Source: an uncultured Planctomycetia bacterium
Lineage (GTDB): Bacteria > Omnitrophota > Gorgyraeia > 2-02-FULL-51-18
NCBI GenBank assembly: GCA_964606485.1
Contig: CAZSGP010000001.1
Coordinates: 289,085 to 353,084, forward strand
Direction of reading: 5' to 3'
DNA length: 64,000 nucleotides
Of this stretch, positions 601-16,811 are shown piece after piece. The notes beneath the pieces were generated by a model, which did no database searches, was not told where the DNA came from, and worked only from the letters and a program-made list of their open reading frames with translations. The translations under genes were made by a program, and so were the position numbers. Each line of letters opens with the position of its first letter. Positions within the stretch are counted from its first letter, which is position 1.

Positions 601-1674
601 ATGCTAGATAACACGGCCGTGAGAAAAATCATCATCGGTCAGCTCGCCACGCTTACAGGAGATAAGTTCCAAGATTTTTGTGATCGGTATTGCTTAAAGC
701 TTCACCCAGGTGATTATCAGCCTGTAAGAGCTGCCGGAAAAGCTGGGGACGAAAAGAACGATGGGTATTGTCCAAAAGCGCGTATTTTTTATGCCGCATT
801 TGGATCACGAGGCCAAACTCTCGCCAAGATCAAACGAAAAATAAAAAGTGATTTACTTGGTTGTCTGGAGAAGCAGGTGGAAGTTCGAGAGTGGCGTTTT
901 ATTACGAACGACGATAAGTTGCCAGGCTATATTGAAAAATACATTGATAAGGAGTTTCGGACTAATAAAAAATTTTGGAAGAAATACCCGAAACTTGAAA
1001 AAGTCGAGGCTATTGGAGGCGTGCTCATTACGCAAGTAATGATTGATAAATTCACTCAACCCGAAATCTTTGAAATGCTCGATCTGCCATTAACCGAAGG
1101 GGGGACTATCGGTCAGTGGTCGGAAACAAATGAACGAACGAAAAAGATTGAAAAAATAGTTGAAGCGCTTGAGGCAAACGCGATGGCGACGACCAAGCCA
1201 ACGACCGTTTCAACAAAACCAATTATCGACGCTGAAGAAGATGAGGCATCGCAGTCAAAATATAAATCCGAATTGGATGCTGCCAAGAAGTTGCTTGACG
1301 GGGAAGAGTTTAAAGCGTGCCGAAAAATCTATGAAAAGCTTCTCAAAGAATTTAATTCTGACCAGACGGTGGCTAAGCTCATTCGATTTAAGGTTCATAA
1401 TAACCTCGGCGCATGTCTCGCGGGTATGGGCGAAGGCGATGAAGCCGCGTTTCATTTCAAAAAGGCTTACGAACTAATCGGAAAGACATCCGTCATCGCT
1501 TGCAAAAATAGAGCCGTGGCAAGCTCGCTTGAAGGTAAGCCAGCCGAAGGCCTAAGTTTTATAAATGCTGCCATTGAGCTTAGTCCAGATGATAATGGGG
1601 CGATAAACATCAAGGCTATGCTCCTAAGGGAATCGGGGCAGATAGAAGAAGCCTTAAAACTTTATCAGGAATGA
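601..1674 (+). CDS. TPR-repeat protein with an unassigned ~170-aa N-terminal domain
   Basis: 357 aa. The C-terminal half has TPR-like helical repeats (e.g. KACRKIYEKLLKEF, AAFHFKKAYELIG, ALKLYQE). Its stop lies 4 nt before the next ORF, so the two likely form an operon. Confidence 0.6.
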   Translation: MLDNTAVRKIIIGQLATLTGDKFQDFCDRYCLKLHPGDYQPVRAAGKAGDEKNDGYCPKARIFYAAFGSRGQTLAKIKRKIKSDLLGCLEKQVEVREWRFITNDDKLPGYIEKYIDKEFRTNKKFWKKYPKLEKVEAIGGVLITQVMIDKFTQPEIFEMLDLPLTEGGTIGQWSETNERTKKIEKIVEALEANAMATTKPTTVSTKPIIDAEEDEASQSKYKSELDAAKKLLDGEEFKACRKIYEKLLKEFNSDQTVAKLIRFKVHNNLGACLAGMGEGDEAAFHFKKAYELIGKTSVIACKNRAVASSLEGKPAEGLSFINAAIELSPDDNGAINIKAMLLRESGQIEEALKLYQE

Positions 1675-1677
1675 CCT

Positions 1678-4527
1678 ATGAAAATTAATAAACGATTTGA
1701 AAACGATAGCCAGGCGCTACTGAACATTGCGACGACATTCGCGGATGCAGGAGACCACCCCAAGGCGGTGGAACACTTTGATAAGGCTGTTACCTTAACG
1801 CCCCAATCGCCAGAAATCAATTTTGCGTATGGCTCGTATCTTTTGGAGCATATTCTCCAAGATCGAAAAAGAAAGTTTTCTCTCTCAGTCCAGGGTATAG
1901 GCGAACTCAAAAAATCCGAGACGCTATTATCTGCTGCTATAGAGTTATTGAGGGAATCAGATAAGAAAAAAGAACTACGGGATGCTTTAGTGAACCGATC
2001 GACCGCTCGCATTATTTTGGACAGGTTCACCGAGGCCGAAGAAGATCTTAATTTTGCTATTGGGCTGAAAGATAATTCGCCTTTAATTTATGCAAACAGG
2101 GGTCGTCTATTTAGGATTCGCAATCGCATTGATGAAGCAATCCTTGATTTCAAGAAAGCGCTTACAGTGGGTGCAAAAAAAGATGACATCTTTCCAATGC
2201 TTGCGTCTTGTTATCTTGAGAGAGAAGACGTAAAAGTCGATGAGTTTATTGAACTTCTCAAAGAGCACTACAAGGATGAAGAGACGGTTTTTTCGGAAAC
2301 TCTTCATGCCGAAAGTCTCATCCTGAAAAAAGACCTTGATGCTGCAGAGCACTTGATTAAAAAAGCATATAAGCACTTTGGTCGCGCACCTCGAATTTTG
2401 GCAACCGAAGCCAGCTTGCAAAAGGCCAGGGGAAACACTAAAGCAGTGGAAGCTTTGCTTAAAGAGGCTGCAAAGGGGAACGGGCTCGATGAAAATATGG
2501 CGAAACTTGAGCTCGCCGTGTTTTATAAGCGTTCCAAAAAATACGATGACGCGATACCGCTTTTTGAGCAATTGGCAAGCGCCGAGCTCTTTGATCAAGT
2601 TCTTATGGACTATTTGACGTGCCTTTATAACTCTAAGCAAAATCGTCGAGAAAATATAAATAAGTGTTTGGAGATATGTAAGAACCTGAGGCAAAAGGGA
2701 CAGGAGAATGTCGGGCTCCTCGAGTTGGAAGCCAGCATTTATCAGTCTCTTGATCACCTGAAAGAAGCCTCCGAGCTTTTCTATGAGCTAACGAAGATTG
2801 AAACAAAGCAGTATCGGCATAAATTAAATTATGCGACCACTCTTATTGAAATGGGTGGCGAGAAGCTCAATGAAGGCAAAAAGCTTCTTTACGAAATTAA
2901 AGACGGGATAGTTGATAAGCAGTATTTGGTTTTACTCGGCAAGTTCTTCGCTCGAGTGGGTGACTATGAGGAAGCGATCAAGACCCTTTATAAGGCTCTC
3001 GAATTAGACTATCGCGATAGCGAAACCCAGCTTATTTATATGTATACGTTTTTGAATAGGGGTGAAAAGAAAACGCCGCTATTGGATTCGGATATCATCG
3101 TAGACGATTTTTATATTCGAATTAAAAGGAATGGAAGGGAAGAGACGTTTTTTATCTCCTCTGACCCAAAGGCGAATTATTCAAAGCACGAAATATATAA
3201 AGATTCAGGGCTCGGAAAACAGCTTTTTGGTAAGCAAAAAGGCGAAATTATAAAAATTAAGACAAATGACATTGAAGACATCTACGAGGTTCTTGAGATT
3301 AAGAGTAAATATGTTAGGGCGTTTCAAGAAATTCTCGACAACTTTAATAAAGACTTCCCTGATGATAAAACTCTTCAAATGGTTAAAGCCGATCCCGCCG
3401 AGATTGCAAATCGACTTCGTTTGATGTCCGAGCGCCAGGAGCAAATTGTCGAAATGTATAAGGCTAAGCAGCTACCTATTAACCTTCTTTCAAATCTTCT
3501 AAATAGGGATATTTTTGTTACTTGGGTGGGGTTAGTTACTCAAAAAGGCTTGAGGTTGTATTGTGCATCTGGAAGCGTAGAAGAGCAGCGAAATGAACAG
3601 GACTTGGTTGAGAATTCGGATACGGTCGTTATTGATCTTATATCGCTTTTGACCCTTTCTGTATTAGAGCTACTCGATTTGCCTCAGAAGGTTTTTAAGA
3701 ATGTCTATGTTCAAAGAGCCACGGTCGATGAAATAGAGGCCCAACTACTTGAAGCAAGGGGTAGGCAAAAAGAAGGGTTTATGACACTTTTCCACCTCGA
3801 GGGTAAGACATATCGGGACGAAGTGAAACCAGAGCAAGCGCAAAAACGACTTGAGTATTTGGAGAAGCTTCGAGCCGCGGTCCAGAAAATGACGATTATG
3901 GGGTTGGACAGTCCTCTCGAAGACTCTCTCACCGAAAAAGAGAAGGTATACGGCCGATCTTACATTCACTTAATCCAGCTTTGTTTGGATAGAAAGATTC
4001 CATTATTTAGTGACGACTTTTTGCTTCGTGGTTTATTGTTTAACGAATACAAAATAAGAGGCTTTAGTATTCAAAACTTCATGGTGATAGCTGGTAAGAA
4101 GGGTCTTTTAAGCGAGATGGAGTATTGCGATAAGATCATCGAGTTATCAAAGAGGAATTACCACTACTTGTCGGTTTCAGCGCAGATGCTATTTCATGCG
4201 GTTGAAAAAAATCACTTTCAGCCCCGAAACGCAGATTTTGATGCGCTTATTGAAACTCTCGCTGAAGACACAACAATTGAGTCGCTGATTACTGTATTGA
4301 GTGATTTTATTCGGTTAATTTATATCGATAAATTGCCGCCAGATGTGAAGGCGAGATATCTGGACGTAATTCTTAACAGGTTATCGGCTGGTGGAAATCC
4401 AGAGCACATCAAGCTATTCCTGAAAGCGCTCCAAAATAAATTGCAATTCGTTGAGTTTTTAATGCCTCAGATTCAGAAAGAAATCCAGAGATGGCTGAAA
4501 TCAAGGGGAGCCTTGATAAGAGTCTGA
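1678..4527 (+). CDS. Large TPR-repeat protein (949 aa) with a possible PIN-like C-terminal region
   Basis: About 450 aa of N-terminal TPR repeats (AVEHFDKAVTL, ILDFKKALTV and others). The C-terminus has the acidic signature TVVIDLISLL ... IPLFSDDFLLRG, which resembles PIN-domain motifs. No P-loop. Confidence 0.6.
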   Translation: MKINKRFENDSQALLNIATTFADAGDHPKAVEHFDKAVTLTPQSPEINFAYGSYLLEHILQDRKRKFSLSVQGIGELKKSETLLSAAIELLRESDKKKELRDALVNRSTARIILDRFTEAEEDLNFAIGLKDNSPLIYANRGRLFRIRNRIDEAILDFKKALTVGAKKDDIFPMLASCYLEREDVKVDEFIELLKEHYKDEETVFSETLHAESLILKKDLDAAEHLIKKAYKHFGRAPRILATEASLQKARGNTKAVEALLKEAAKGNGLDENMAKLELAVFYKRSKKYDDAIPLFEQLASAELFDQVLMDYLTCLYNSKQNRRENINKCLEICKNLRQKGQENVGLLELEASIYQSLDHLKEASELFYELTKIETKQYRHKLNYATTLIEMGGEKLNEGKKLLYEIKDGIVDKQYLVLLGKFFARVGDYEEAIKTLYKALELDYRDSETQLIYMYTFLNRGEKKTPLLDSDIIVDDFYIRIKRNGREETFFISSDPKANYSKHEIYKDSGLGKQLFGKQKGEIIKIKTNDIEDIYEVLEIKSKYVRAFQEILDNFNKDFPDDKTLQMVKADPAEIANRLRLMSERQEQIVEMYKAKQLPINLLSNLLNRDIFVTWVGLVTQKGLRLYCASGSVEEQRNEQDLVENSDTVVIDLISLLTLSVLELLDLPQKVFKNVYVQRATVDEIEAQLLEARGRQKEGFMTLFHLEGKTYRDEVKPEQAQKRLEYLEKLRAAVQKMTIMGLDSPLEDSLTEKEKVYGRSYIHLIQLCLDRKIPLFSDDFLLRGLLFNEYKIRGFSIQNFMVIAGKKGLLSEMEYCDKIIELSKRNYHYLSVSAQMLFHAVEKNHFQPRNADFDALIETLAEDTTIESLITVLSDFIRLIYIDKLPPDVKARYLDVILNRLSAGGNPEHIKLFLKALQNKLQFVEFLMPQIQKEIQRWLKSRGALIRV

Positions 4528-4534
4528 CAGCCTC

Positions 4535-4759
4535 TTACTTAATTCCCTTAAAAAAATCTGATAGATTGAGCTTAAAAGCTTCAGCCACTTTGGCGATAGT
4601 GTGAATTTTAGGGTAGAAGCGAGGCGTTTTGGCCTCAAGACGCTGGACGCTTTTATAGTCCAGACCCGCTTTTTCAGCCAACTCCTGCTGGGTGAGATCC
4701 TTTTTCGCTCGTAGTTCTCGGATACGGTAACAAATCTGCTTACGGAGGTCTTTTGCCAT
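4535..4759 (-). CDS. XRE-family (Cro/CI-type) HTH transcriptional regulator
   Basis: 74 aa with the HTH_3 signature LTQQELAEKAGLDYKSVQRLE. It is convergent with the upstream TPR operon and divergent from the rightward element genes. Confidence 0.85.
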   Translation of the reverse strand: MAKDLRKQICYRIRELRAKKDLTQQELAEKAGLDYKSVQRLEAKTPRFYPKIHTIAKVAEAFKLNLSDFFKGIK

Positions 4760-4776
4760 AGAATCAGTATCTCAGA

Positions 4777-4796
4777 CGGTGTCATAAAAGACACCG
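4777..4796. promoter_or_regulatory. Perfect 7-6-7 inverted repeat (CGGTGTC-ATAAAA-GACACCG), a candidate operator for the XRE regulator
   Basis: The palindrome lies 18-37 nt upstream of the XRE start codon on the minus strand. Confidence 0.35.
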
Positions 4797-5020: not shown

Positions 5021-6343
5021 ATGAAAAAAATCTCACTTAAATATAATTTGCTTCCTGTTCTATTATTGGTGCTCTTCGTATTTTTACAGGTTAGGTTAGC
5101 CGGGGCTGATGAGGTGCCTGCCAAAAACTATTTTGGAAAATATGTATCAGCCGACGGTAATGGCGGTGTCGTTGAAAGCCTGGAACGCGTCGACCTTGTA
5201 AATAAGGATATATCAAAACTCAACCCACAGCATATCTATGTCGATGACAGAGGTATGCCGCTTGCGTTTTTTAATGAAAAAGGTCAGACGATCTCAAAAG
5301 ACGATATGTTACAAGGAAGCCGTCAAAGGATGGAGCGGGAACAGCAGATGGGTGGCTCGGGAACCTTTTTTAAGGATGGGTATGTTCGGGACAGTGACTA
5401 TTATGGACGGCTTACAGGTTATAACCCAAACAACAATAATCCGGGCGATGACAGCGTCTATAAGGGGCGGAATACTGCCCAATCACCGAACGTGGTTCAA
5501 TCCCAAGGGAAGCTAGAAGTAAGTGGACCATCTAGCCCTTCTGTTGGAACTGGGCTTCTTCCAACCCCAAAAACACTTAGCGGTGAAACAGTCGGCTTAA
5601 GCGGCGGCACACCCATTGACCCTAGCAAGTTAAGCGCCGATAGTATACCCGATGGTTTTGTCTTGATGAACGGCGCTTTGGTAAAGGACCCCGTCATTCG
5701 AGAAAAAGCCGTAATGCCCAAAGAACAGTGGCCTGCCGACCGTATGGAGAAATCATGGCAAAGCAACGCAGAGGGTCTTTTGAAAGTCAGAGAACAGGCC
5801 AAGGTAGACGGTCGTGAGCTTACAACAGACGAGCTTCGTCTGGCCGCTTGCCGCCTTGATATTCAAAACAGGGTGTATGTGAATCCCAACATCAAGCTAA
5901 CGCCTGAAGAAATCGAAAAAGAAGCCACAAAACAAGTCCAAGAATGGAAGCGAGACAATCTCTACATGCTGTCTGATGGCAAGATCGCCGGTTTTGGACC
6001 GGGTGGGGTCGAGGGATGGGTTCAGGAGCAAAGAGAAAACCGAGAAAAGTTTATTCGAGAAACCAGAGCTTCAGTGGAAAAAATGGCCAAAGGCGTTACG
6101 CCGGGATTGACGCCAGAGGGAAAAGAACGTGAAGATAAAGTAAGGGCCGAGACGCTTAAAAACCAAGCTGATTTTGAAAAAAGTATGCGGGAAGATTCCG
6201 AGAAGAAAATTGTACAGTTATTGAAGGATACTGGCGTAGCAGACCCCGGGCGGTCCAATTCAACGGTATCAAAGCCAGCGCTCGTGGCCTACGCATTGCC
6301 AAAGATGCTGGTGTCATACGAGAAAGCGAGCGATAAGAAATGA
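5021..6343 (+). CDS. Secreted hypothetical protein (cargo gene)
   Basis: N-terminal signal peptide MKKISLKYNLLPVLLLVLFVFLQVRLAGA. GGAGG ribosome-binding site upstream. Low-complexity Pro/Gly/Ser central region. No identifiable domain. Confidence 0.6.
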   Translation: MKKISLKYNLLPVLLLVLFVFLQVRLAGADEVPAKNYFGKYVSADGNGGVVESLERVDLVNKDISKLNPQHIYVDDRGMPLAFFNEKGQTISKDDMLQGSRQRMEREQQMGGSGTFFKDGYVRDSDYYGRLTGYNPNNNNPGDDSVYKGRNTAQSPNVVQSQGKLEVSGPSSPSVGTGLLPTPKTLSGETVGLSGGTPIDPSKLSADSIPDGFVLMNGALVKDPVIREKAVMPKEQWPADRMEKSWQSNAEGLLKVREQAKVDGRELTTDELRLAACRLDIQNRVYVNPNIKLTPEEIEKEATKQVQEWKRDNLYMLSDGKIAGFGPGGVEGWVQEQRENREKFIRETRASVEKMAKGVTPGLTPEGKEREDKVRAETLKNQADFEKSMREDSEKKIVQLLKDTGVADPGRSNSTVSKPALVAYALPKMLVSYEKASDKK

Positions 6344-6669
6344 ATACAAACATTCAAAGCCAAAAAGCCGATAAGCCAACGACGATCCACCTGACACAAA
6401 TAAAGCCAGGGATCACCAAAGAAGAACGTGGCAGGTTGGCGAAGAAGCTGGCCAATGTGCTATGGGCAGATTCTGCCAATCGCTTTCCCACCAACCAATA
6501 ATCTTAATAGATGTAAGTCGCGATTTACTTGAAGCCAAAATGATTATGGTTATTTTCTTTATCCGAGTAAAATAAGGCAAAATAGAAAACCTAATAAAAT
6601 GTTGCGTTTAAAGAATAGCGCGTTGTATTTTTTGATTGTATTGATGATCATGATGAGAGGTGATGAAGC

Positions 6670-7572
6670 GTGGCGAAGGATCAGGATGAAATACGCCAAC
6701 ATGAGGTTTTAATTGCCCTTGATAAATGGGAGTTTATAAGGATAGGCTCTCGATATCGTGGTGATTACAAAAATATTTGGCTGCCTTTTCTGAACAAGAT
6801 TAAAAATTTCCGCTTAAAGAAAGTTGATGGGCGGATAGTCAAAATTAAGCCAATAGACGACAGAGAATTTCAAAAGGTTAGCTCTCATTTTTGGAACCAA
6901 TATGGAATTGTGGAACCGGTTTGGCCTGGAATTTGTGCTTTTAATAGGAAAGGGGAGATTAACGAACAAAATATAAAAGTAATATGTAACGCTTTTGCGG
7001 ACATACCGGTCATTAGGCATGAGGATTATCTGGGTTTCGGCGGTGAGGTGCTATTCAAAAAAAACCATAGAAAAGTGACAAAAAATAAAGAATCATTCTT
7101 CATTGGGCGTGTCACCGCGCAGGACATGAGAGAACTAAAAACGTTAAAGGTTTCAGTTGATAAGACAATGAGCAAAGAACGCATTGATTACCATAACAGA
7201 AGACTCATTAGCCAGTGGAAGATCTTAATAAATCGACAGAATGAATTAAAGAGAGACGAAAAAGCGGGAGTGAGAACTATTCTTAAAAAACATCAAGACA
7301 AGATGCGGATATTCCTGCGCAGGCACAAAACGGAAATCAGGTATCGATTTAGAGATCACGCTGAGTACAGACGGGCATATCGTATCGTTGAACGGATCAA
7401 GCGAATGAAGAAGTATAGAGGGACTGAATCAGCTGTAACCATCGCAACCCTATACTTAAACCCAGGAGTTTCAGTCTCATCAAGAACATGGATCAATTGT
7501 TTTGATGATACTTGTAGAAAGTACAGAATGGGCTGTCGGTATATTGGCGGAGACTATATGAGTATAAAATGA
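6670..7572 (+). CDS. Hypothetical highly basic protein
   Basis: 300 aa, rich in Arg/Lys (RYRFRDHAEYRRAYRIVERIKRMKKYR). GTG start with an AGAGG ribosome-binding site. Followed by a strong terminator. Confidence 0.5.
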   Translation: MAKDQDEIRQHEVLIALDKWEFIRIGSRYRGDYKNIWLPFLNKIKNFRLKKVDGRIVKIKPIDDREFQKVSSHFWNQYGIVEPVWPGICAFNRKGEINEQNIKVICNAFADIPVIRHEDYLGFGGEVLFKKNHRKVTKNKESFFIGRVTAQDMRELKTLKVSVDKTMSKERIDYHNRRLISQWKILINRQNELKRDEKAGVRTILKKHQDKMRIFLRRHKTEIRYRFRDHAEYRRAYRIVERIKRMKKYRGTESAVTIATLYLNPGVSVSSRTWINCFDDTCRKYRMGCRYIGGDYMSIK

Positions 7573-7628
7573 TTACTTTATTTCCAACCGTCACAAATTG
7601 ATTAAAATATAGAACGTACTAAGATCGG

Positions 7629-7664
7629 ACCTGTAGGAAGAAAAATTCATCCTACAGGTTTTTT
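7629..7664 (+). terminator. Rho-independent terminator
   Basis: ACCTGTAGGA ... TCCTACAGGT forms a 10-bp stem with an 11-nt loop and is followed by TTTTTT. Confidence 0.6.
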
Positions 7665-7698
7665 GTGTTTCAAGGCCAAACTAAGAATCGAGAATTTG

Positions 7699-7992
7699 AT
7701 GACCGATGAAATAATGATGTCAATCGCATCCCTCATATCAGAAGTTTCCGTCACGCCGGTTCGTCCAAAAAATACCCTCGTAGCTTTTTGTTCGTTCGTC
7801 TATCGCAAGGAATTTTATTTAGGCGATATCGCGCTTCATATTGATTTGTCCGGCGATGGTTATCGACTCGCGTATCCCGAAAAAACCCTATTTAATGGCA
7901 CACGCTGCCAAATTATTTTCCCTCTCTCATCAAATATTGGCGACGCTATCAAAAATGTCATCGTGACCAAATACGAGGGAATGATCCGATGA
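7699..7992 (+). CDS. Small hypothetical protein
   Basis: The track ORF at 7663 starts inside the terminator T-run, so the internal ATG at 7699 is a more plausible start. No motif. Confidence 0.25.
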   Translation: MTDEIMMSIASLISEVSVTPVRPKNTLVAFCSFVYRKEFYLGDIALHIDLSGDGYRLAYPEKTLFNGTRCQIIFPLSSNIGDAIKNVIVTKYEGMIR

Positions 7993-8035
7993 ATAAAAAA
8001 GTGACACATAATTTTCGCACTGTCTTTTTGTCTTA

Positions 8036-10798
8036 TTGTCTTGTGTTCTTGGAGAGCAAATGAACGATTTTGAAGAAATTAAAAGCCGGGTCGTCCTGGC
8101 GGACCTGATCCATGAAGAAACGGGTCTTGCGCTTAAAAAAGCAGGAAGCAATACCCTTGGTCTTCACGAGTGTCCCTTCTGCGGAGGTCACGACTGCTTC
8201 CGGATTCAGATTAAGAATCAATTTTATAAATGCTTCCAATGTGATGAAGGGGGCGACGTATTCAGTTTTATTAAAAAAAGGCATGAGTTTAATTCACGAT
8301 TTGAAGCTCTTAAATATGTGTCCAAAAAGATCGGCTGTGAACTAAAAAACAAGAAGGAGTGCGAAGGGTATCTGCGGACACAGGAAGCAAAGCGTCATTC
8401 GGCTGAATACTACAGCCATAACTTGCTAGAGCGACTTAAAAGCCGGTCCATCCGCTACGCTGGTGGGCAGGATGACAAGGTGTTCGTCTCCACAGTTCTT
8501 GAGTATCAAACCGTGGTTCGTAAGCATGATCCTTCGGTGTTAAGAAAGCTCAAAATAGGATATGCGGATGGCGGGCTATTCGATTATCTGATCGGCAAGG
8601 GGTTTAAGAAACAAGAAATTCAGAAATCCGGACTTTTGAACTCGGCGGGGAAGGATCTTTTCAAAGATACGTATGTTTATCCGCAGTATGTGGATGGCGA
8701 GATGTCACATTTCACGCAAAAAGACCCGCTTAAAAAGCAGAAACATCAGGTAAAGAAGGAGTATTGGGATAAAAGGTGGTTTGGCTTTAACCAAGATTCG
8801 CTGGATGGGAAGGAAGTTATTCTCTGCGAGGGTGAGAATGACGTCTTGTCAGTTGTTGGTAAGGGGGGAGCCTCGGCGGCCATTGCGTTTATTGGGTCGA
8901 TATCTAATGAGCAACTTGAAGCGCTAGCCCCTCATATAAAAGGAAAGATCGCATATACGTGTTTTGACAGCGACGACACCGGCAAGAAATATGAAAAGTT
9001 AGTTTCAGGACGCTATATCGGGGATGAATATGATATACGGCTTGTGAATTTCGAGGGCGCAAAAGACATCGACGAAATTCTCAAGGCCTCACAAGATCCT
9101 AAAACACTACTTGCTTCCCTAATATCTAATGCAGTCAAACCTCCCGAAATTACATCTCCAATTGAAATCCGGAACGGACGCTATTTCGTCCAAAGACGAA
9201 GGGGCAGTGTCCAAATCACCAATTTCACTATCCGTATAAAAAACCGCATTGTGTCGAATGGCAATTCCGTGCGAGAAGTTGCGTTTGTAGACATTAACGG
9301 CGAGGAGACGCGGCCTTTCATACTCGAACCCGAGCACATGGTCACTCCGTCAAGGTTCAAAGAATTTTGTCTTTCAAAGGGAAACTTTGTTTTTGAGGGG
9401 AACGGAACCGATCTAGCCGAGATTTGGAAATATGAAATGGCCAAAGATAGAGGCCGAAAAATAATTCAGCCAGACCATATCGGCTTCCTGCAGGAGTTTC
9501 AATTATGGCTCTTTGGAAATGCCCTTTTCAAAGATGGAAAAGTAATTACAAGTGACGATGATGGGGTCTTTTGGATTGGTAATACCGGATTTAAACCAGT
9601 CTCACTTTCAATAAAAGATGAGGATCAGGCGGTCTTACCAGAACTACGTATTGAAGAGCCTGAAAAATCAAGAGAGCTTCTGAGGTTCATTGTTCAGAAA
9701 TCAAAGGAAAATATTGGAAATCACAACTCATCGTTAGCGCTTGGATATATCAAGGCGGTGATTTACAGCAGAGAAATCTTTAATCGTTTTAAATTTTTTC
9801 CTTTTCTATTTATCTATGGAAAATTTCAGTGCGGAAAAAATACGTTCGCCAGATTCCTTCTTTGGTTTTTTGGTTTGGGTGATACTGATGGAATCAGCAT
9901 TACGGAAGCAACTCAGACAGGAATTTCAAGGAAATTAGCGTATCTGTCTTGTCTTCTCGTGTGGCTGGATGAATTTCGAAACGAAGTAAAAACTTTCAGA
10001 CTGAGCAGTTTCCTAAGAAGCGTGTATAACAAAATCACTTCAGTGAAAGGTATAAAGAGTGATTTCGGTACTCGAAACGTGCCAGTTCGAGCGGCGCTTC
10101 TTCTCTCAGGGGAGCAGCTTCCGAGTGATCCTGGACTTCGCAGCCGGTGCATTCCTATTATGTTGCGTCGCAATCAGCGCAAGGATTCCGTTCTTCATGA
10201 AATCAACAACGTCGCTTATCGACTAAGCGCCATAACCTCAATGTGGATTCTCGAGAAAACACCTGAAAAGGTGAGCGAGTTCCTCGAGAATATTGAGACC
10301 ATAAAAACGCAACTTCAAGCTGACCATCAATTCGATACCCGTCTTGCCGAAAACTATGCGGTCCCAATTGCCGGATTTCGTTCAATCGCATCCAGCGAGG
10401 AGTTCGATGAGTTTTATGAATGGGTTGTTGAGGCGGCAAAGCACGATAAAGAGGCCAAGGACGAAGACCATGTCCTTCATCAATTCCTTGAGGATATCGA
10501 AGTGCTTATCTGTAACCGGGCTGTTCCATCCGATTATTTCCAGGTAGACGATGCAGCTGGAGAAGTGAAGTTTTATTTCAACGGTCTTTATAACATGTGG
10601 GCCCGAGATTTTCGACAGCGAAAAGGGGAAGAGCCTTTTCCAAAGCGAGCAATTTTGGACCATTTTCGCGAGGAAGACTACTACATCAAATATGATCGGC
10701 CTTATATCAACGGCAGGCAATTCCATGGGCTTGTGCTCGATCTAAAGAAAGCACCCGCAGACCTTGTTTCAGCTATGCGGAACCATCCAAGCCGATGA
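8036..10798 (+). CDS. DnaG-type primase (zinc ribbon plus TOPRIM) fused to a C-terminal P-loop/helicase-like domain (P4-alpha / D5-like replication protein)
   Basis: CHC2 zinc finger CPFCGGHDCFRI...YKCFQCDEGGD. TOPRIM acidic motifs ILCEGENDVLSV and CFDSDDTGKKYE. C-terminal Walker-A-like GKFQCGKNT. Confidence 0.8.
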   Translation: MSCVLGEQMNDFEEIKSRVVLADLIHEETGLALKKAGSNTLGLHECPFCGGHDCFRIQIKNQFYKCFQCDEGGDVFSFIKKRHEFNSRFEALKYVSKKIGCELKNKKECEGYLRTQEAKRHSAEYYSHNLLERLKSRSIRYAGGQDDKVFVSTVLEYQTVVRKHDPSVLRKLKIGYADGGLFDYLIGKGFKKQEIQKSGLLNSAGKDLFKDTYVYPQYVDGEMSHFTQKDPLKKQKHQVKKEYWDKRWFGFNQDSLDGKEVILCEGENDVLSVVGKGGASAAIAFIGSISNEQLEALAPHIKGKIAYTCFDSDDTGKKYEKLVSGRYIGDEYDIRLVNFEGAKDIDEILKASQDPKTLLASLISNAVKPPEITSPIEIRNGRYFVQRRRGSVQITNFTIRIKNRIVSNGNSVREVAFVDINGEETRPFILEPEHMVTPSRFKEFCLSKGNFVFEGNGTDLAEIWKYEMAKDRGRKIIQPDHIGFLQEFQLWLFGNALFKDGKVITSDDDGVFWIGNTGFKPVSLSIKDEDQAVLPELRIEEPEKSRELLRFIVQKSKENIGNHNSSLALGYIKAVIYSREIFNRFKFFPFLFIYGKFQCGKNTFARFLLWFFGLGDTDGISITEATQTGISRKLAYLSCLLVWLDEFRNEVKTFRLSSFLRSVYNKITSVKGIKSDFGTRNVPVRAALLLSGEQLPSDPGLRSRCIPIMLRRNQRKDSVLHEINNVAYRLSAITSMWILEKTPEKVSEFLENIETIKTQLQADHQFDTRLAENYAVPIAGFRSIASSEEFDEFYEWVVEAAKHDKEAKDEDHVLHQFLEDIEVLICNRAVPSDYFQVDDAAGEVKFYFNGLYNMWARDFRQRKGEEPFPKRAILDHFREEDYYIKYDRPYINGRQFHGLVLDLKKAPADLVSAMRNHPSR

Positions 10799-10889
10799 GC
10801 GACGGTCATTTTGTCTTGTTATTTGTCTTATTTAATTACTTGTGGACTAAGAGGTTAGAGCAAACAAGTCAAAAAGACAGGAATTTCTA

Positions 10890-11489
10890 ATGGGTATTCC
10901 AATATTAAAAGGCAAGGGGGATTTGGAGGGCTTAGGCAGCCAGCCCGTGGCAAATCCCATCGACCAAGACAACGCCCTTAAGGTGATGGAAAAAGACTAT
11001 CGAGAAGCTGCCCTGCGCCTTGCCGCAGCACATAAGAGCCTTCCCGCATCTGTTCGGCCCTGGTTCATATATGAAGCACAGAAATTTGATGCGAGTATCC
11101 ATGCGGCATTGACCACAAAAAATAATGACAAACTTCAAGATGTTTTGGTGGGTTTCGAAGCGCTAATCGCAGAAGTTGTGCCGCTATCCGTGAGCGGTTG
11201 GAACGAAGATCGCGAGTGGATCTTTCCATTTTGGAGTGATCGATTCAATTGTGAGGTCTGGTTTGTTTATTCAGAAAAGGAAGCAGGTTTTTTAATGCAG
11301 AAAGGTGTCTCAAGAGGGTTTATTTTTACCGAAGACGAAATCAAAAAATTATCAAAACTCAATCAATCCAGTTTCGAGTCCATTGATCTGATCAAAAAAA
11401 CTTTTAATGCCACTTTGATTGGTATTAAAGATGACCGGTCAGAATCAACGCAAGTAGAGCCACCACCTGAAAGGGCTGGCCCGAACTAA
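10890..11489 (+). CDS. Hypothetical protein
   Basis: 199-aa ORF inside the replication module. No motif. Confidence 0.45.
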   Translation: MGIPILKGKGDLEGLGSQPVANPIDQDNALKVMEKDYREAALRLAAAHKSLPASVRPWFIYEAQKFDASIHAALTTKNNDKLQDVLVGFEALIAEVVPLSVSGWNEDREWIFPFWSDRFNCEVWFVYSEKEAGFLMQKGVSRGFIFTEDEIKKLSKLNQSSFESIDLIKKTFNATLIGIKDDRSESTQVEPPPERAGPN

Positions 11490-11574
11490 TTAAAGGTGAC
11501 GAAAGCGTATTGAAAGGGAAAAAAGGAAGTAAATGGTTACTACTGTTAAATCAGAAAATCGAAGGAGATAAGAC

Positions 11575-12060
11575 ATGGGTAGATTTATTGGGAAAAAAGC
11601 AAAGTTGGTTGAGATTAAGGTTCCAACTGGGAAGAAAATCAAAGGGATAGTCACGGAAATCAAGGCCTCTGACCTGTATCCAAATTCGCTCAACATAAAA
11701 ATTGAGTGTCCGGAGCATACGGCCTGGTCGGAAGACGGACAGAAGCAATTTGTAAAAATTGCTTACTTCAGTTTTCCGATGGATTGGTCTCCAAAAAATA
11801 AAGCGGGTAAGTTTTACCTGGCCCTAACCGGCAAATTACCAACCGGTGAAGTTGACTGGGATGAACTCCTTCTGAACCGCGAGGTTGGTGTCATCTTCAA
11901 CGACGAGTTAGATCCTAGTACAGGTGAATTCAAGGGCCAACGTGTGATATGGATCGGTAGTATGGATGGAGGCCTCAAAGCACCTGAACAAAAGGCCAAA
12001 TCACCTACTAATCCACCAAAGAAAGATGAGTCAACGTTAAGTGATGAAACACCGTTCTAA
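11575..12060 (+). CDS. Hypothetical protein, possibly SSB-like
   Basis: 161 aa. The acidic C-terminal tip ...STLSDETPF recalls the SSB tail DDDIPF. It sits between the primase and helicase genes. GGAG ribosome-binding site. Confidence 0.45.
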   Translation: MGRFIGKKAKLVEIKVPTGKKIKGIVTEIKASDLYPNSLNIKIECPEHTAWSEDGQKQFVKIAYFSFPMDWSPKNKAGKFYLALTGKLPTGEVDWDELLLNREVGVIFNDELDPSTGEFKGQRVIWIGSMDGGLKAPEQKAKSPTNPPKKDESTLSDETPF

Positions 12061-12073
12061 GCATGTTCTGTTT

Positions 12074-12129
12074 AAACTCGGGCTGTTGTTACATGCTATT
12101 GAGCCCGCAATGACAGTCCGAGTTTTTTT
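12074..12129 (+). terminator. Rho-independent terminator with an unusually large loop
   Basis: A 12-bp stem AAACTCGGGCTG / CAGTCCGAGTTT (one G-U) encloses a 28-nt loop and is followed by T7. Confidence 0.5.
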
Positions 12130-12144
12130 AACTTTCAATAGGAG

Positions 12145-13479
12145 ATGATTGTTATGCCAGAAATTTCGATCGCTGCCTTGTCACTTCCGCCAGATTTTGA
12201 AGAGAGTCAAGAATTTCGGCAGGGCTACGAAATTGTCGAGAAAACCTCAAGGTCTCTATATATATCGGGTGTTCCGGGTGCTGGTAAGTCAACCTGGCTT
12301 ACATCGTTTCGGAAGAATACTAAAAAGAACCTTGTCGTTCTGACGCCAACGGGCATTGCAGCGGTCAATGTTCAAGGGCAAACCATCCACAGTTTTTTTA
12401 AGTTCCCTCATTCTTTAATCCAAAAAGAAGATATCCGACGTCATCCAACAAATGGACTTTTCAAGAAGCTCGATCTTCTGACCATAGACGAGGTCTCTAT
12501 GGTCAGGCCAGATTTGTTGGACGCAGTCGATTACTCACTCCGGCTTAACCGGAATTGTTTTAATCTCCCGTTCGGAGGTGTGCAGATTCTTTTAATCGGC
12601 GACCTCTATCAGCTTCCGCCTGTGCTGGACAAGGAGCTGGCCAAACATTATGCAGAGTTATATGAAACCCGTTACTTTTTCAGTGCAAAGGTGTTTGAGG
12701 AAGCCAAATTTCACTCATTTACGCTGACAAAAAATTTCAGGCAGAAGGACGAGAAGTTTATGTCCCTGCTCAACAGGATCAGAAACAACAACGTTAGCGA
12801 CGATGATCTGAGGTTACTGAATACACGGGTCGACCCCGAACTTGCTGAAGTGTGGAGGGACAGCATTAGGCTCGTGCCCACAAACGCCGCCGCAGACGCT
12901 GTAAACCATTCGCGCTTGTCAAAACTACCGGGCGAAGAATTTCTTTATCAAGCAACGATTAAGGGTGAATATGACCGCCGGTCATATCCTGCTGACGAAA
13001 ATCTAATACTCAAAGTCGGAGCCCAAGTTTTGATGATCAAGAATGACCCCGGAGGGAGATGGGTAAATGGGAGTATCGGGCGGGTTGTTGAATTGACACC
13101 CGACGGAATCAAGGCACAGATTGATCATGGAATATATGACGTACATCCCGTGAAATGGGACAAGATTGTATATGAGCATGGCGGTTCGTCAGGAGGCATT
13201 ACTCCCGAAGTAGTTGGTACATTTGAACAGTTTCCGGTCAAACTCGCCTGGTCGATTACGGTTCACAAAAGTCAGGGCCTTACTCTTGATAAAGTTATCG
13301 TGGATTTAGACCGTGGGGCTTTTGATCACGGGCAAACTTATGTTGCCCTTTCTCGATGCAGGACGCTTGAAGGACTAGTCCTGAAGCGTCCTGTTAAGCG
13401 CAGCGACATCATTTTTGATAGACGTATTGACCGAATTTCAGGACTGTTCATTCCGAGTGAAATAAGAAAGTTTCAATGA
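12145..13479 (+). CDS. PIF1/RecD-family ATP-dependent DNA helicase
   Basis: Walker A GVPGAGKST. Motif II LTIDEVSMV. C-terminal UvrD_C_2-like region TVHKSQGLTLDKV. Confidence 0.85.
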   Translation: MIVMPEISIAALSLPPDFEESQEFRQGYEIVEKTSRSLYISGVPGAGKSTWLTSFRKNTKKNLVVLTPTGIAAVNVQGQTIHSFFKFPHSLIQKEDIRRHPTNGLFKKLDLLTIDEVSMVRPDLLDAVDYSLRLNRNCFNLPFGGVQILLIGDLYQLPPVLDKELAKHYAELYETRYFFSAKVFEEAKFHSFTLTKNFRQKDEKFMSLLNRIRNNNVSDDDLRLLNTRVDPELAEVWRDSIRLVPTNAAADAVNHSRLSKLPGEEFLYQATIKGEYDRRSYPADENLILKVGAQVLMIKNDPGGRWVNGSIGRVVELTPDGIKAQIDHGIYDVHPVKWDKIVYEHGGSSGGITPEVVGTFEQFPVKLAWSITVHKSQGLTLDKVIVDLDRGAFDHGQTYVALSRCRTLEGLVLKRPVKRSDIIFDRRIDRISGLFIPSEIRKFQ

Positions 13480-13506
13480 GCAGGTTAATATAAAGGAGGG
13501 TATGGA

Positions 13507-14217
13507 ATGAAAGTCTTTATTTTGGATGATAAGAATTCGTATGTTTATGACGGTAGCCGCAACAGACAATTTATTGAATTGGCACCATGCTCAGATTGCA
13601 AAACTTTTCTCTGGAGCGATGATGAGCGCACATTGATTCAGGACGCTGTTCAATTTGTATGGGAACTATCAGATTTTGAACTTGATGTATGGCATGCTCT
13701 GTCAGCTACATACTGCTCAAAAGATGCTAATGATGCTATACGCTTAGGCAACCTGCTCAATCCGCTTCGCGATTTATTCGAATACGACAGTGAGGAAATA
13801 GGGTCGCTTCGCGATGTATTGCAACTTGCTGCATTTGCTGGACCCATAAGCATCAACATTGAAAAAGCTAAAATAGTTTATAAAAAAATTCGAAAATTTG
13901 TTGTGCACATCCACAACAAGCACCGAGATGAGAAGGGTAAAGTCCTGGCCCCATCAGACTGGTTTAATAATGGTTCACTTGACTGGATTGATCTTGATAG
14001 ACTGCTAAGTTTTTTGCCTGGAGTCCGGGGGAAGTCCGAATCGGAAATTGCGGCGTACTTGAAAGAAGAATGGGAGAAGCTTGATAGATGCAAGAAGTGC
14101 AACCAAATTCTTGCAATTGGTCAAGACGAAGGGAAGTTAAATGGTATCTGCTACAAATGCGAACCTCAGCAGATCTTTGAAAACAGCACGGATGGAAAAC
14201 AGGTACCTAGCCAATGA
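13507..14217 (+). CDS. Hypothetical protein with a C-terminal zinc ribbon
   Basis: CKKCNQ...CYKCEP Cys4 motif. No other recognisable domain. Confidence 0.45.
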   Translation: MKVFILDDKNSYVYDGSRNRQFIELAPCSDCKTFLWSDDERTLIQDAVQFVWELSDFELDVWHALSATYCSKDANDAIRLGNLLNPLRDLFEYDSEEIGSLRDVLQLAAFAGPISINIEKAKIVYKKIRKFVVHIHNKHRDEKGKVLAPSDWFNNGSLDWIDLDRLLSFLPGVRGKSESEIAAYLKEEWEKLDRCKKCNQILAIGQDEGKLNGICYKCEPQQIFENSTDGKQVPSQ

Positions 14218-14250
14218 ACTTTTTCAGCGCTTATTATAATCAAAAGAATC

Positions 14251-14502
14251 ATGATGAAATCAGTGACCCATGCGAGTATATTAACGGAGAGAATGCTAAA
14301 CAACCCACTGACAACATACGAAGCGGCAAAGCGCGCAGGTTTCGCAGTTCCTTATATTCGCCAGCTATTGGCGAAAGGCAAACTGAAGGGTCGGTATGCA
14401 AAGATCAACGACTCGAAAGCTATCTGGCTTATCGACAGCGCTTCTTTGAAGAAATATCTCTCTTCTTCTCGCCAACGTGGTCCCAAACCAAAGAAAAAAT
14501 AG
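14251..14502 (+). CDS. Small HTH DNA-binding protein, excisionase/RDF-like (recombination directionality factor)
   Basis: 83 aa. Its short HTH (TTYEAAKRAGFAVPYIRQLL) and basic C-terminal tail resemble excisionase/AlpA-type proteins, and it lies just upstream of the recombinase genes. Preferred over the overlapping 14214..14621 ORF. Confidence 0.55.
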   Translation: MMKSVTHASILTERMLNNPLTTYEAAKRAGFAVPYIRQLLAKGKLKGRYAKINDSKAIWLIDSASLKKYLSSSRQRGPKPKKK

Positions 14503-14775
14503 CCACTAGCTGTATCAAGCTCGTCCACGGCATACGCCTTGTATTAAATTCCTACTTCGTATATAATATAATCCAAAAGAATAGTGCCCATTGTTGCGAG
14601 GATGCCAATGGTTACGCTTGAAATATCTGTTGTCGAAACCATTCTCATAAGCGAGCCGGATGATTTTCAAATCTTAGTTTGGTGTCTCGCTGACCTAAAC
14701 TCATTTTTTTCGGTAATAGCAGCTTTATCAAATGGGGTTATTCAATACGCAGAAGAACAGGGGATTCTTAGCTAA

Positions 14776-15171
14776 ATGGGAGGGTTCAAGATGTCAGAAA
14801 ATAAAAGAATAGTGGCGTGTTATGCGAGGGTTGGTAGAAATTCAATAGAGCAAAGCGGTCACTTTAAAGAAGGTGAAGCGCTGCTTAATCAAATCGAGAA
14901 ATGTAGTTCATTTATTGCTCAAAACAGAACATGGCAAGCTGGGCCAATTTATATGGATATAGCTAGCACAGGCGATTTAGAGAGATCCGGGTATCAGCAG
15001 ATGTTGAAAGACGCGTGGAGTGGAAAATTTCATGTATTGGTTGTTACCGACTTCGATCGCCTTACGAGAAACCTCAGTGAAGGGATGCGTATGGTTCGAG
15101 CTTTTACTAAAGGCCTTGGGATAAAGATTTCGTTCGTTGCTCGGTCTCAAAGGAAGAAGAACAGATGTTAG
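14776..15171 (+). CDS. Resolvase/invertase N-terminal-domain paralogue lacking the nucleophile serine
   Basis: It aligns to the N-terminus of the downstream LSR (SGKFHVLVVTDFDRLTRN versus AGKFQVLVIWKIDRFMRN). The catalytic motif YxRVSTxxQ is replaced by YARVGRNSIEQ, with Ser changed to Gly. It overlaps the LSR start by 7 nt. Confidence 0.6.
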   Translation: MGGFKMSENKRIVACYARVGRNSIEQSGHFKEGEALLNQIEKCSSFIAQNRTWQAGPIYMDIASTGDLERSGYQQMLKDAWSGKFHVLVVTDFDRLTRNLSEGMRMVRAFTKGLGIKISFVARSQRKKNRC

Positions 15172-16811
15172 GAAAAGTAATAAAAAGAATAGCGGCAATA
15201 TATATTCGCGTTTCGACAGAGGACCAAAAGCGAGAAGGTCACTCGCTTGACACTCAACTTGAAGATTGCCAAGGCTTGATACGCCGGGACGAATCGTTAG
15301 TCGAGGGGACAATTTATAAAGAAGTTGAGAGTGGGCATAAGATCGATCGTGAGCAATATCAACAGATGTTGCGAGATGCCCAAGCGGGTAAGTTCCAGGT
15401 GCTAGTGATTTGGAAAATCGACAGATTTATGCGTAATACGCTCGAAGGATTGCGTGCGGTCGAGTTCTTGATGGGGTTGGGAATCGAAATTATGTCTCCA
15501 ACAGAGTATCTAGATTTCGTTTCTGCACGCGGAAAAAGAAATATGCGGGAAGATTTGGTCGGAGCCGAATTTGAACGCGATAGGCTAATTGAGCGTGTTA
15601 TGCCTGGTATGAAAAGGGGTGTCGCGAAGGGACATTGGCAGGGTGCACGTTCTTGTTTTTACGGTTATCGTTATGACAAACGGGATAAACTTCTTATTGA
15701 GGTTCCAGAAGAAATTAAAGTAGTGAAAATTATTTATTCACTTCGTTCTCAAGGCATGGCTATTTACTCGTTATGTATGCGACTTGCAGAAATGGGGATT
15801 CGTAACAGAATGAGGCGGCTTTTTACCACCAGACAAATAGAAATTATTTTGAACCGTGCCATTTATTATGATGGGCATCTACTCTGGAATGGTGTGCGTA
15901 GCGAACAGCCCGTTATGGTCCCTATTCTTGATAAAGATATTTGGGAAAAAGTGCAGGCGGTTAATGCTGACAGAAAACAAGAGACGAAAAATGTTTCGCC
16001 GGGCCGGGCAACTTCAAGTTATGTGCTACAAGGGGTTCTAAAGTGCGCTCTTTGCGGCGGCAATATGGTTGGTCAGCGTCGACACTCCAATCGTCCAAAA
16101 AATATAAAAGTTCCTTGGTATGTTTGCGGCACATATATTCAACGAACTCGCAAGGCATGTCCTGGGCAATGCGTTCGGGCTGATGCTGTTCATGAATTAG
16201 CATTCGATATTCTTAAAAAGATATTACGGAATCCACAGTTGATCGAGTTTACACGAGACAACTTGAAAAAAATGTTTGCGCATAGTTTTCCCCATTTGTC
16301 GCGTCGAGTTAATGATCTGCAAGCCAATTTACAACGATTAAAAAGGGAAGAAGCCAAATGCCGTGATGCATATTACCGCGAGGCACTGACATTGCAGCAA
16401 TTCAAAAATGAAAATTATCGTCTTTTGGAGGAACAGAGAGCTGCCGAAGAAGAATCAAGAGATCTGCAGACGAAGCTAAGTGGAGCGGTTGCCTACGAAG
16501 GAAAGATCGACCAGGTCTTTTCGTTATTGAGCAATTTTGAGCCCGTATGGAAAAAGATGGACCCTGTCCAACAAAGAGTAGTTTACCGGGGGATATTTAA
16601 TACGTTCTTTACAGACAGCAGAAAATACAGCAGGGAGTACAAAGTTAAGGATTTTTCACTTAAGGAACCTTTTAAAAGCTGGTATTATGATCAAGCGTGG
16701 GGAGGACCGATTCTGATCACAGAAGCGGGTGGGGCCCTTTTAATCGATAACCAAATTAAAAACAAAGACTTATGCGAAAAGTTTATATTTGCACCTTCGG
16801 ATGTCAAATGA
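15165..16811 (+). CDS. Large serine recombinase (phage-type integrase)
   Basis: Catalytic motif AAIYIRVSTEDQ. Recombinase domain. Zinc ribbon CALCGGNM...YVCGTY. Coiled-coil region. 548 aa. Its 3' end overlaps the miaB start by 40 nt. Confidence 0.9.
   Translation: MLGKVIKRIAAIYIRVSTEDQKREGHSLDTQLEDCQGLIRRDESLVEGTIYKEVESGHKIDREQYQQMLRDAQAGKFQVLVIWKIDRFMRNTLEGLRAVEFLMGLGIEIMSPTEYLDFVSARGKRNMREDLVGAEFERDRLIERVMPGMKRGVAKGHWQGARSCFYGYRYDKRDKLLIEVPEEIKVVKIIYSLRSQGMAIYSLCMRLAEMGIRNRMRRLFTTRQIEIILNRAIYYDGHLLWNGVRSEQPVMVPILDKDIWEKVQAVNADRKQETKNVSPGRATSSYVLQGVLKCALCGGNMVGQRRHSNRPKNIKVPWYVCGTYIQRTRKACPGQCVRADAVHELAFDILKKILRNPQLIEFTRDNLKKMFAHSFPHLSRRVNDLQANLQRLKREEAKCRDAYYREALTLQQFKNENYRLLEEQRAAEEESRDLQTKLSGAVAYEGKIDQVFSLLSNFEPVWKKMDPVQQRVVYRGIFNTFFTDSRKYSREYKVKDFSLKEPFKSWYYDQAWGGPILITEAGGALLIDNQIKNKDLCEKFIFAPSDVK

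Follow-up and report, generated by a model that had tools for sequence, protein, structure and literature searches.

The TGP conflict systems were described by Kaur, Iyer, Burroughs & Aravind (eLife 2021, PMC8195603) as proteins in which a constant TPR-GreA/B-C-PIN region follows a variable effector domain of one of 13 kinds, among them REase (restriction endonuclease), HNH, TIR, SIR2, PNPase and peptidase heads; the architecture was named TGP in a 2024 preprint (bioRxiv 10.1101/2024.11.07.622273). The family was presented as a single polypeptide encoded by "mostly standalone genes", with roughly 1,500 proteins in the source table, REase being the commonest head (906 + 118 of about 2900 architecture strings), and the sensing of RNA polymerase by TGPs was proposed as a hypothesis (PMC8195603). 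Here we analyse two adjacent genes located near the left edge of a 64,000-nt stretch of DNA from an uncultured Planctomycetia bacterium, placed by GTDB in Omnitrophota (GenBank assembly GCA_964606485.1, contig CAZSGP010000001.1, positions 289,085 to 353,084 of the forward strand; the whole stretch is hereafter called the window). The pair is probably a split, two-gene TGP anti-invader system, carried as cargo by a serine-recombinase integrative island.

The sole experimentally tested TGP system that we found is Bab/Agp of E. coli strain ECOR25, which confers resistance to phage T5 by abortive infection (10.1101/2024.11.07.622273). In this system the TGP protein Agp serves as the sensor or controller, while a separate protein encoded upstream, Bab, executes abortive infection; mutations in the GreA/B-C domain of Agp abolish T5 resistance (10.1101/2024.11.07.622273).

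An earlier note on this DNA, made from the letters alone, had proposed the pair as a novel defence or abortive-infection module. The novelty of the system as such does not stand, since the large protein is a TGP, a family with its own Pfam entry (PF20698) and its own description (PMC8195603), and Bab/Agp has been validated (10.1101/2024.11.07.622273). Earlier publications cover the TGP family, its domains, the forms with an REase head and also a form made of two genes (Bab/Agp, "HetE-N1 -> TGP"). What is new is the division of the system within its TPR array, where a conserved TPR adaptor bears alternative heads; the assignment of the head to a large family unnamed in Pfam and common to Lamassu/ABC-3C and STAND effectors; and the island with its insertion site.

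The gene pair and its conserved split

The pair and its junction comprise the following features.

601..1674, plus strand: gene 1, head-adaptor protein, 357 aa, ATG start (open reading frame (ORF), AlphaFold2 (AF2) model, homologue P0015)
1678..4527, plus strand: gene 2, headless TGP protein, 949 aa, ATG start (Pfam, homologues P0002-P0007, alignment A4)
1672..1680, plus strand: junction TGA-CCT-ATG with a 3-nt spacer (sequence inspection)

Both ORFs are intact and co-oriented and have the lengths given earlier, and the existence of homologues of both genes at 45-74% identity shows that they are not chance ORFs. At the junction, which reads CAG GAA TGA CCT ATG, the two genes lie in the same reading frame and are separated by 3 nt, not by 4 nt as had been reported. 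An AGGAA motif is located 8 nt before the ATG of gene 2, and translational coupling through the AGGAA and the 3-nt junction is possible. The arrangement of the pair looks like that of co-transcribed genes, and promoter and terminator scans of positions 1-5100 gave results at chance level only. Readthrough of the gene 1 TGA would yield a single-chain-like protein of about 1307 aa.

As had been noticed, NTPase motifs are lacking: neither protein contains a P-loop, and the sole Walker-A-like string, AYELIGKT (aa 289), falls within a predicted TPR helix. The description of both proteins as mostly TPR was right about the presence of the repeats and overstated their extent, which is about 40% of the small protein (aa 215-357, with helices over 215-356) and about 49% of the large one, where multiple Pfam TPR families match across aa 6-465. 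In a search against PHROGs the small protein had no match and the large protein matched in its TPR region only.

The large protein is divided as follows.

1678..3072, plus strand: TPR array, about aa 1-465, predicted to serve as scaffold or as sensor surface (multiple TPR families; alignment A4)
3118..3312, plus strand: GreA/GreB C-terminal-like domain, aa ~481-545, predicted to bind the rim of the RNA-polymerase secondary channel (PF01272; conservation in A4)
3628..4029, plus strand: PIN domain of TGP type, aa 651-784 (PF20698; conservation in A4)
4030..4524, plus strand: conserved helical C-terminal region, aa 785-949 (aligns to the C-terminus in all TGP homologues, single-chain ones included)

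By its sequence, this protein is almost certainly a member of the TGP family. Its domains occur in the canonical TGP order, TPR, GreA/B-C and PIN, and score above the Pfam thresholds. PF20698, the PIN domain associated with the TPR-GreAB-C-PIN system, matched with 63.1 bits against a threshold of 27.8 (E 4.3e-17) over profile positions 1-133 of 138. PF01272 (GreA/B-C) matched aa 483-542 at the expected position with 28.6 bits, a narrow margin over the threshold of 26.9; NCBIfam GreA models match the protein through their C-terminal part only, and the GreA structure 1grj gave a weak match in the same region (E 0.11). In Gre factors, the C-terminal-type domain binds the rim of the secondary channel of RNA polymerase.

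Conserved residues were identified in alignment A4, which holds 11 sequences, the large protein and TGP relatives at 16-47% identity. The residues E505, G522, S543, K544 and Y545 of the GreA/B-C domain are invariant. The PIN-like acidic signature (VVIDLISLL … PLFSDDF) pointed out earlier lies within the PF20698 match, with both motifs on conserved acids: 10 of the 11 sequences have D or E at D653 (VVID), D684/E685 are conserved in at least 90%, and D779/D780 (FSDDF) are invariant, as is Q799 just downstream of the PIN domain. The putative catalytic D653 and D779/D780 thus align with those of the family, the point on which a PIN assignment could have failed.

The homologues P0002-P0007 are 45-47% identical to the large protein and equal to it in length and domain content. 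The gene 2 product enters TPR at about residue 10 and has no N-terminal effector, so the variable effector that typifies TGPs is found here not on the same polypeptide but on the separate upstream protein. Since the head is encoded by its own gene in an otherwise TGP-like arrangement, we treat the pair as a variant rather than a typical member of the family.

Gene organisation was compared in 33 species-representative loci from GTDB, whose representatives do not include the genome of the window itself. The two closest loci (46% identity), from metagenome-assembled genomes (MAGs) of Candidatus Omnitrophota, have the same split. Of the 31 relatives that are more distant, about 24 consist of one chain of 1200-1440 aa and come from Cyanobacteria, Chloroflexota, Poribacteria, Planctomycetota and others, and the remainder are shorter or truncated ORFs. 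The metagenomic relatives L001-L006 are split too, and altogether 10 adaptor genes were found, each with the gene of a headless TGP or an equivalent immediately downstream. Their junctions vary, with a 2-nt spacer in L004, a 4-nt overlap in L001, L007 and L008 and an 11-nt overlap in L002, the two genes being in different frames in every case. The protein P0015, 68% identical to the small protein, has the same kind of downstream partner (74% identity to gene 2), and that pair is also out of frame. About 10 loci are split at one and the same point, with differing junction frames; the split is therefore ancestral to a small clade and not the product of a nonsense mutation, and the in-frame TGA of the window, given that homologues are split in other frames, is probably a one-in-three coincidence.

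The position of the split within the single-chain architecture can be read from a conceptual fusion of both proteins (1306 aa), which is collinear with single-chain proteins across the gene boundary, over fused residues 2-902 for P0111 and 2-677 for P0124. In single-chain TGPs, the counterpart of the adaptor's TPR block is the first of their TPR blocks (about residues 100-360).

The head and adaptor of the small protein

Three regions were distinguished in the small protein.

601..1080, plus strand: head domain, aa 1-160, divergent PD-(D/E)xK or restriction-endonuclease-fold module, predicted toxic effector (AF2, Foldseek, fusions)
1093..1239, plus strand: flexible linker modelled with low confidence, aa 165-213, with many Thr, Lys and Glu residues (pLDDT 46-71; not conserved between partners)
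1243..1671, plus strand: constant TPR adaptor block, aa 215-357, 8 helices forming 4 TPR hairpins, predicted docking surface for gene 2 (TPR_1/TPR_2, AF2)

The N-terminal domain suspected earlier is real: it is compact, spans about 160 aa and was modelled alone by AF2 with a pLDDT of 96.1 and a pTM of 0.89 (80 sequences), while the model of the whole small protein (53-sequence alignment) had a pLDDT of 89. It had been called unassigned, which holds with respect to Pfam, where no family matched at E ≤0.1 apart from a chance-level match to AbiGi, but the model shows an REase fold and the module is reused as an effector elsewhere. The order of secondary-structure elements fits an alpha-beta-beta-beta-alpha-beta core, and in Foldseek searches of the PDB the top matches were nearly all REase-fold nucleases, including R.BspD6I, Can2, Avs4, Cap4, EcoT38I, PspGI, NucS and EcoO109I. 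Against the viral structures of BFVD, restriction endonuclease and PD-(D/E)XK proteins were matched with probabilities of 0.98-1.0; TM scores over both libraries ranged from 0.5 to 0.58. Sequence and profile searches of the head against the PDB returned noise only, with no relative of solved structure. One catalogued REase+TPR+GreAB-C+PIN protein is named DUF4365-containing by NCBI, and the window head has no match to DUF4365. The label "AbiJ-NTD3", attached in UniRef to the head relative P0092, was dropped, as Pfam did not reproduce it.

Conservation within the head was assessed in alignment A5, consisting of 80 diverse sequences. D50 and D54 are invariant, and F23, Q24, G46, G49, K52, G55, K80, D84, G87 and N103 are conserved in at least 90% of them. 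D54 stands at the start of strand 2, the position of the PD aspartate, and the conserved K52, K80 and D84 are located off strand 3. The active site, if one exists, is non-canonical.

An exhaustive search with the head yielded 260 cluster representatives at E ≤1e-3, in proteins of 68-2393 aa in which the domain is nearly always N-terminal. It is fused to single-chain TGPs (P0125, 1260 aa; P0134, 1256 aa) and to NB-ARC+TPR, NACHT and nSTAND5 proteins, and 48 of the 80 relatives in A5 contain CTD10 or CTD11, the effector domains of ABC-3C/Lamassu. The PADLOC models PDC-M68A and LmuA match the head family strongly; for the LmuA model PDLC03852 the window head gave E 6e-6 and the best member of the family 2e-13. 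Judging from the model and from the proteins in which it occurs, the head is an REase-fold effector module, for which we infer an enzymatic activity; that it is an active nuclease seems somewhat likely. A putative nuclease had earlier been placed in the large protein only, whereas it is the small protein that probably carries the main toxic effector.

Dozens of proteins, mostly from Streptomyces and about 270-300 aa long (P0020-P0097), pair the same REase-fold head, 55-58% identical to that of the window, with an unassigned C-terminal domain that has a conserved GRDLWPILS motif; these proteins have no Pfam match.

Within the split clade the TPR block of the adaptor is conserved and the head is not, two unrelated heads being found on one adaptor: the REase-fold head occurs in 2 of the 10 adaptor proteins (that of the window and P0015) and an unrelated helical head in the other 8. 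Where a constant coupling module bears interchangeable heads, the head position is usually that of an effector. The second head measures about 140 aa, is all-helical in appearance, starts with a hydrophobic helix (MDFLWLQQLIIGHAIKHGLDKS…) and has no Pfam match; adaptor genes carrying it were located at 8117-9094 in L001, where the head spans 8117-8560, 2486-3505 in L002, 9027-10004 in L007 and 9015-10004 in L008, and the proteins P0016-P0019 carry it as well. By analogy, this head might be a membrane-active effector comparable to the Bell-like domain of Bab.

The integrative island and its neighbourhood

The placement of the pair in the cargo region of a mobile element, proposed earlier, was confirmed, and the element is an integrative island with a serine recombinase, not a phage. 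Its features within the window, with the adjoining chromosomal gene, are listed below.

4535..4759, minus strand: XRE/HTH_3 regulator, 74 aa (PF01381, E 1.4e-10; generic matches to capH, C-protein and RstR models)
5021..16811, plus strand: island backbone (Pfam, PHROGs, synteny with L007/L008, GC content at third codon positions (GC3))
5021-6343, plus strand: 440-aa protein with a signal-peptide-like N-terminus (MKKISLKYNLLPVLLLVLFVFLQVRLAGA) (ORF)
6670-7572, plus strand: basic 300-aa protein (ORF)
8036-10798, plus strand: primase, island backbone
12145-13479, plus strand: Pif1/Dda-like helicase, island backbone
14776-15171, plus strand: small resolvase, 131 aa, resolvase N-terminal domain only, island backbone
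15165-16811, plus strand: large serine recombinase, 548 aa, island backbone
16772-18085: MiaB-like radical-SAM gene, chromosomal, abutting the island

Mobile DNA is confined to the first 16.8 kb of the window; beyond it lie genes for the MiaB-like protein, a SPOR protein, MiaA, ComM, COX1, isoleucyl-tRNA synthetase (IleRS), a penicillin-binding protein and others. These housekeeping genes rule out the whole window as a phage, and the "phage" matches of a 927-aa protein proved to be those of IleRS. The GC3 of the pair (0.43-0.44) equals that of the island primase (0.445), and GC3 sets the island as a whole (0.43-0.45) apart from the chromosomal genes, where it is higher (0.53). No structural genes are present among the island genes within the window, and the first two genes of its rightward operon (5021-6343 and 6670-7572) matched nothing in Pfam or PHROGs. 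The two serine-recombinase genes stand in tandem with a 7-nt overlap, and the ORF of the large recombinase overlaps the MiaB-like ORF by 40 nt. A repeat search over the island gave no convincing att-like repeats. An exact 14-nt repeat, TCGAGGGATGGGTT, was observed at 4957-4970 and 6009-6022, the second copy being inside the gene of the 440-aa protein, and a terminator-like hairpin with a T-run is located at 4942-4969 in the intergenic region between the XRE gene and position 5021. At the left edge, a plus-strand ORF is open from base 3 to a stop at 258-260 (window 1-260), and its last 85 residues have no Pfam match. Since this ORF runs in from outside, the island, possibly with more cargo, extends leftward.

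The XRE gene is convergent with gene 2, ending 7 nt after it, and divergent from the replication genes of the island. Of the description "its XRE repressor", the convergent gene is thus confirmed and the repressor role is plausible, if unproven. Where the downstream neighbour of homologous pairs is visible, no XRE gene adjoins them, its place being taken by a methyltransferase gene in L001 and a 126-aa ORF in L007. As it does not travel with the pair in L001 or L007, the XRE gene is probably the regulator of the island and not a conserved part of the pair.

In L007, from an Omnitrophota MAG, an island at the same site comprises type I restriction-modification (R-M) genes, two metallo-beta-lactamase (MBL)-fold genes and a split TGP pair, together with a serine recombinase and a primase unlike that of the window, and is followed by a MiaB-like gene. 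The type I R-M genes are directly upstream of the pair; in L002 an HsdS gene is nearby, and the neighbours in L001 are methyltransferases, a HATPase_c_3 gene and SocA/Panacea. The split pairs of L001, L002 and L007 are therefore found in the company of defence islands. The block of recombinase, MiaB-like, SPOR protein and MiaA genes is syntenic in the window and in the Omnitrophota loci L007 and L008. The same chromosomal site is occupied in these three distantly related genomes (window 15165-19789; L007 17354-21968; L008 ~17039-21637), the islands being followed by the MiaB-like gene, then a SPOR/TPR protein gene and then MiaA. The MiaB side looks like a conserved integration hotspot carrying defence cargo.

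In the chromosomal part of the window, unrelated to the pair, two adjacent paralogous genes for PilB/GspE-type secretion ATPases were found at 45650-47386 and 47383-49155; both products match phrog_19065, and the first also matches Pfam T2SSE and MshEN.

Proposed mechanism, alternatives and comparison with known systems

The following scheme could be proposed for the pair. Both proteins would be made together from one transcript, and the TPR block of the adaptor would stack on the N-terminal end of the core TPR array, rebuilding the superhelix of single-chain proteins and keeping the head inactive. The GreA/B-C domain would monitor RNA polymerase, and transcripts made by phage-captured polymerase may be cleaved by the PIN domain, following the hypothesis of Kaur et al. 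Once infection is sensed, the complex would change its state and the head would be freed or activated; acting as a DNase, it would degrade DNA, and the infection would be aborted with the death of the cell before the phage completes. As the pair has no NTPase switch, its activation would have to be independent of NTP.

Where it has the two TPR blocks dock, RNA polymerase bound, both nucleases active and phages resisted, this scheme draws on homology and the literature, and its parts differ in strength. A defence function of the pair is likely. The docking of the adaptor on the core stands at even chances, and the sensing of RNA polymerase, resting on the family hypothesis and the Agp GreA/B-C mutants, is put forward with some doubt. 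The interpretation as a sensor-effector pair acting in defence or abortive infection, made earlier, is still the best available; defence in this particular organism is what we infer from it.

The finding extends a known family, does not overturn current ideas and will hardly surprise specialists, but it is useful for dissecting TGPs. These are widespread, with about 1,500 catalogued (PMC8195603) and only one tested, and the sensing of infection, the binding of RNA polymerase and RNA cleavage by the PIN domain are questions for the whole family. The natural split separates the presumed toxic head from the sensor, so that each part would be easier to express and purify, and the system could be reconstituted from two proteins. 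If the scheme is correct, nature has already parted sensor and effector in this pair, which could serve to examine the way in which infection is detected by TGPs at RNA polymerase. The head family lacks a Pfam entry and has a presumably non-canonical active site, and defining its activity would therefore annotate hundreds of proteins.

Several observations weigh against the split-TGP defence scheme or parts of it. The Agp PIN mutant D762N loses resistance, but its protein is destabilised, and no effector-independent activity of Agp was found (10.1101/2024.11.07.622273); interaction with RNA polymerase and PIN cleavage are hypotheses even at the level of the TGP family. PADLOC, suggested earlier as a check, did not call the pair as a system, each protein giving weak single-domain matches only. 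The GreA/B-C-PIN half, compared by tblastn with 50,697 phage records, had no match among them, which is neutral for a defence role in a host or an island. The left end of the island lies beyond the window, and further partner genes upstream are possible. As for the head, none of its PDB fold matches is strong (TM about 0.5, E at least 0.047), and its strand 3 (aa 62-67, IFYAAF) carries neither an acid nor a lysine, so that the canonical (D/E)xK is missing and nuclease activity is not assured; the family consensus on this strand is FFQxYAP, and the window protein has A65 and F67 in place of Q65 and Y67.

The departures on strand 3, the modest fold scores and the lack of a sequence match to solved nucleases would all suit a form of the same TGP system in which the head is a non-catalytic REase-fold binder of nucleic acids or ligands, serving as sensor or adaptor, and PIN is the sole effector. 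This is unlikely, since the domain is nearly always at the N-terminal effector position of STAND, ABC-3C/Lamassu and TGP proteins, a position held by enzymes in characterised systems (e.g., the Cap4 nuclease of DdmA), and since the pattern of invariant D50/D54 and of K52/K80/D84 at 90% or more across 80 sequences fits an active site. The two genes, which share one frame, are parted at the TGA CCT ATG junction by just the stop and one codon and have a summed length of 1306 aa, against 1256-1260 aa for single-chain proteins with the same head, could be taken for a decaying single-chain gene broken by a nonsense mutation, or for one restored to full length by readthrough. Such an origin is hardly credible in view of the recurrence of the split at one position in about 10 loci (45-74% identity) with junctions in different frames, among them the closest homologue (68% and 74% identity), which is out of frame; moreover, neither ORF is disrupted, and the AGGAA is followed by an ATG that belongs to gene 2 itself.

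Other explanations accept the pair as functional and assign it to the needs of the island. An addiction module resembling toxin-antitoxin systems, in which the PIN protein or the head is the toxin, the partner its neutraliser and stabilisation of the island the only purpose, with no anti-phage role, would account for a classic VapC toxin domain on a mobile island, in two tightly coupled genes next to a helix-turn-helix regulator. However, the pair differs from VapBC in that its PIN domain is one part of a 949-aa protein that also has TPR and GreA/B-C, a small DNA-binding antitoxin is absent and the upstream protein bears an effector-type head and no antitoxin-type domain; most family members are single chains that could not work as a two-part toxin-antitoxin system (PMC8195603), the homologous pairs that were checked adjoin R-M genes in contexts like those of defence islands, and the sole tested member of the family is an anti-phage system. 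An addiction module is thus improbable. Even less probable is a modulator of transcription for the life cycle of the island, in which a Gre-like factor and an RNase would redirect the transcription of the host or a helper phage in the manner of phage satellites. A GreA/B-C domain does imply contact with RNA polymerase, the island in the window is satellite-like in having replication but no structural genes, and the pair adjoins its XRE switch region. Nevertheless, the pair moves independently of the backbone, being accompanied by a non-homologous primase in L007 and L008, it stands beside type I R-M genes in L002 and L007, most of its single-chain relatives are encoded by genes that stand alone on a chromosome or plasmid, and its head is common to bona fide immune effectors. 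None of these four alternatives agrees with the comparative data as closely as the split-TGP scheme does.

The split-TGP pair resembles several known defence systems in part. With Lamassu/ABC-3C effectors of the LmuA type (e.g., DdmA, consisting of the Cap4 nuclease and CTD7; PMC11707656) it has in common the head family, which occurs there N-terminal to CTD10/CTD11, and the principle of a nuclease-fold head restrained by a constant coupling module. It differs in that the small protein has a TPR block and no CTD match, and in that a TGP protein takes the sensor role of the SMC/Rad50-like ATPase; no SMC/Rad50-like LmuB or LmuC was found among the ORFs of 1-16.8 kb. With the Avs/STAND proteins (e.g., Avs4, PDB 8dgf) it shares an N-terminal REase-fold effector combined with a repeat-based sensor, but not the NTPase switch.

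The closest likeness is to the TGPs (PF20698) themselves. Gene 2 encodes the full constant core in the same order, and the head is found on the single-chain P0125 and P0134; the difference is that in the window a gene of its own encodes the head together with the first TPR block, leaving a headless core of only 949 aa. As in Bab/Agp, the two genes of the pair are neighbours with the same orientation, and the one for the effector lies upstream of the one for the TGP. Bab, however, is a 109-aa helical protein of the Bell/HetE-N1 type, presumably targeting the membrane, and its partner Agp has 1094 aa, whereas the effector in the window is a 357-aa protein with an REase-fold head. The amyloid motif BASS11, through which Bab is coupled to Agp, is common to Bab's C-terminal end and Agp's N-terminus. 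By inspection only, no shared amyloid-type terminal motif was visible between the C-terminus of the small protein (…IEEALKLYQE) and the N-terminus of gene 2 (MKINKRFENDSQ…), and, unlike Bab with its amyloid-motif C-terminus, the small protein is predicted with high confidence to be helical TPR to residue 356; its conserved TPR block is presumed to act as the coupling element. One could tentatively hypothesise that covalent fusion and amyloid templating are joined, in the split clade, by a third mode of linking effector and TGP, in which exchangeable cassettes dock non-covalently and complete the TPR superhelix of the sensor. If so, the sensor gene could be re-armed by swapping the small upstream gene alone.

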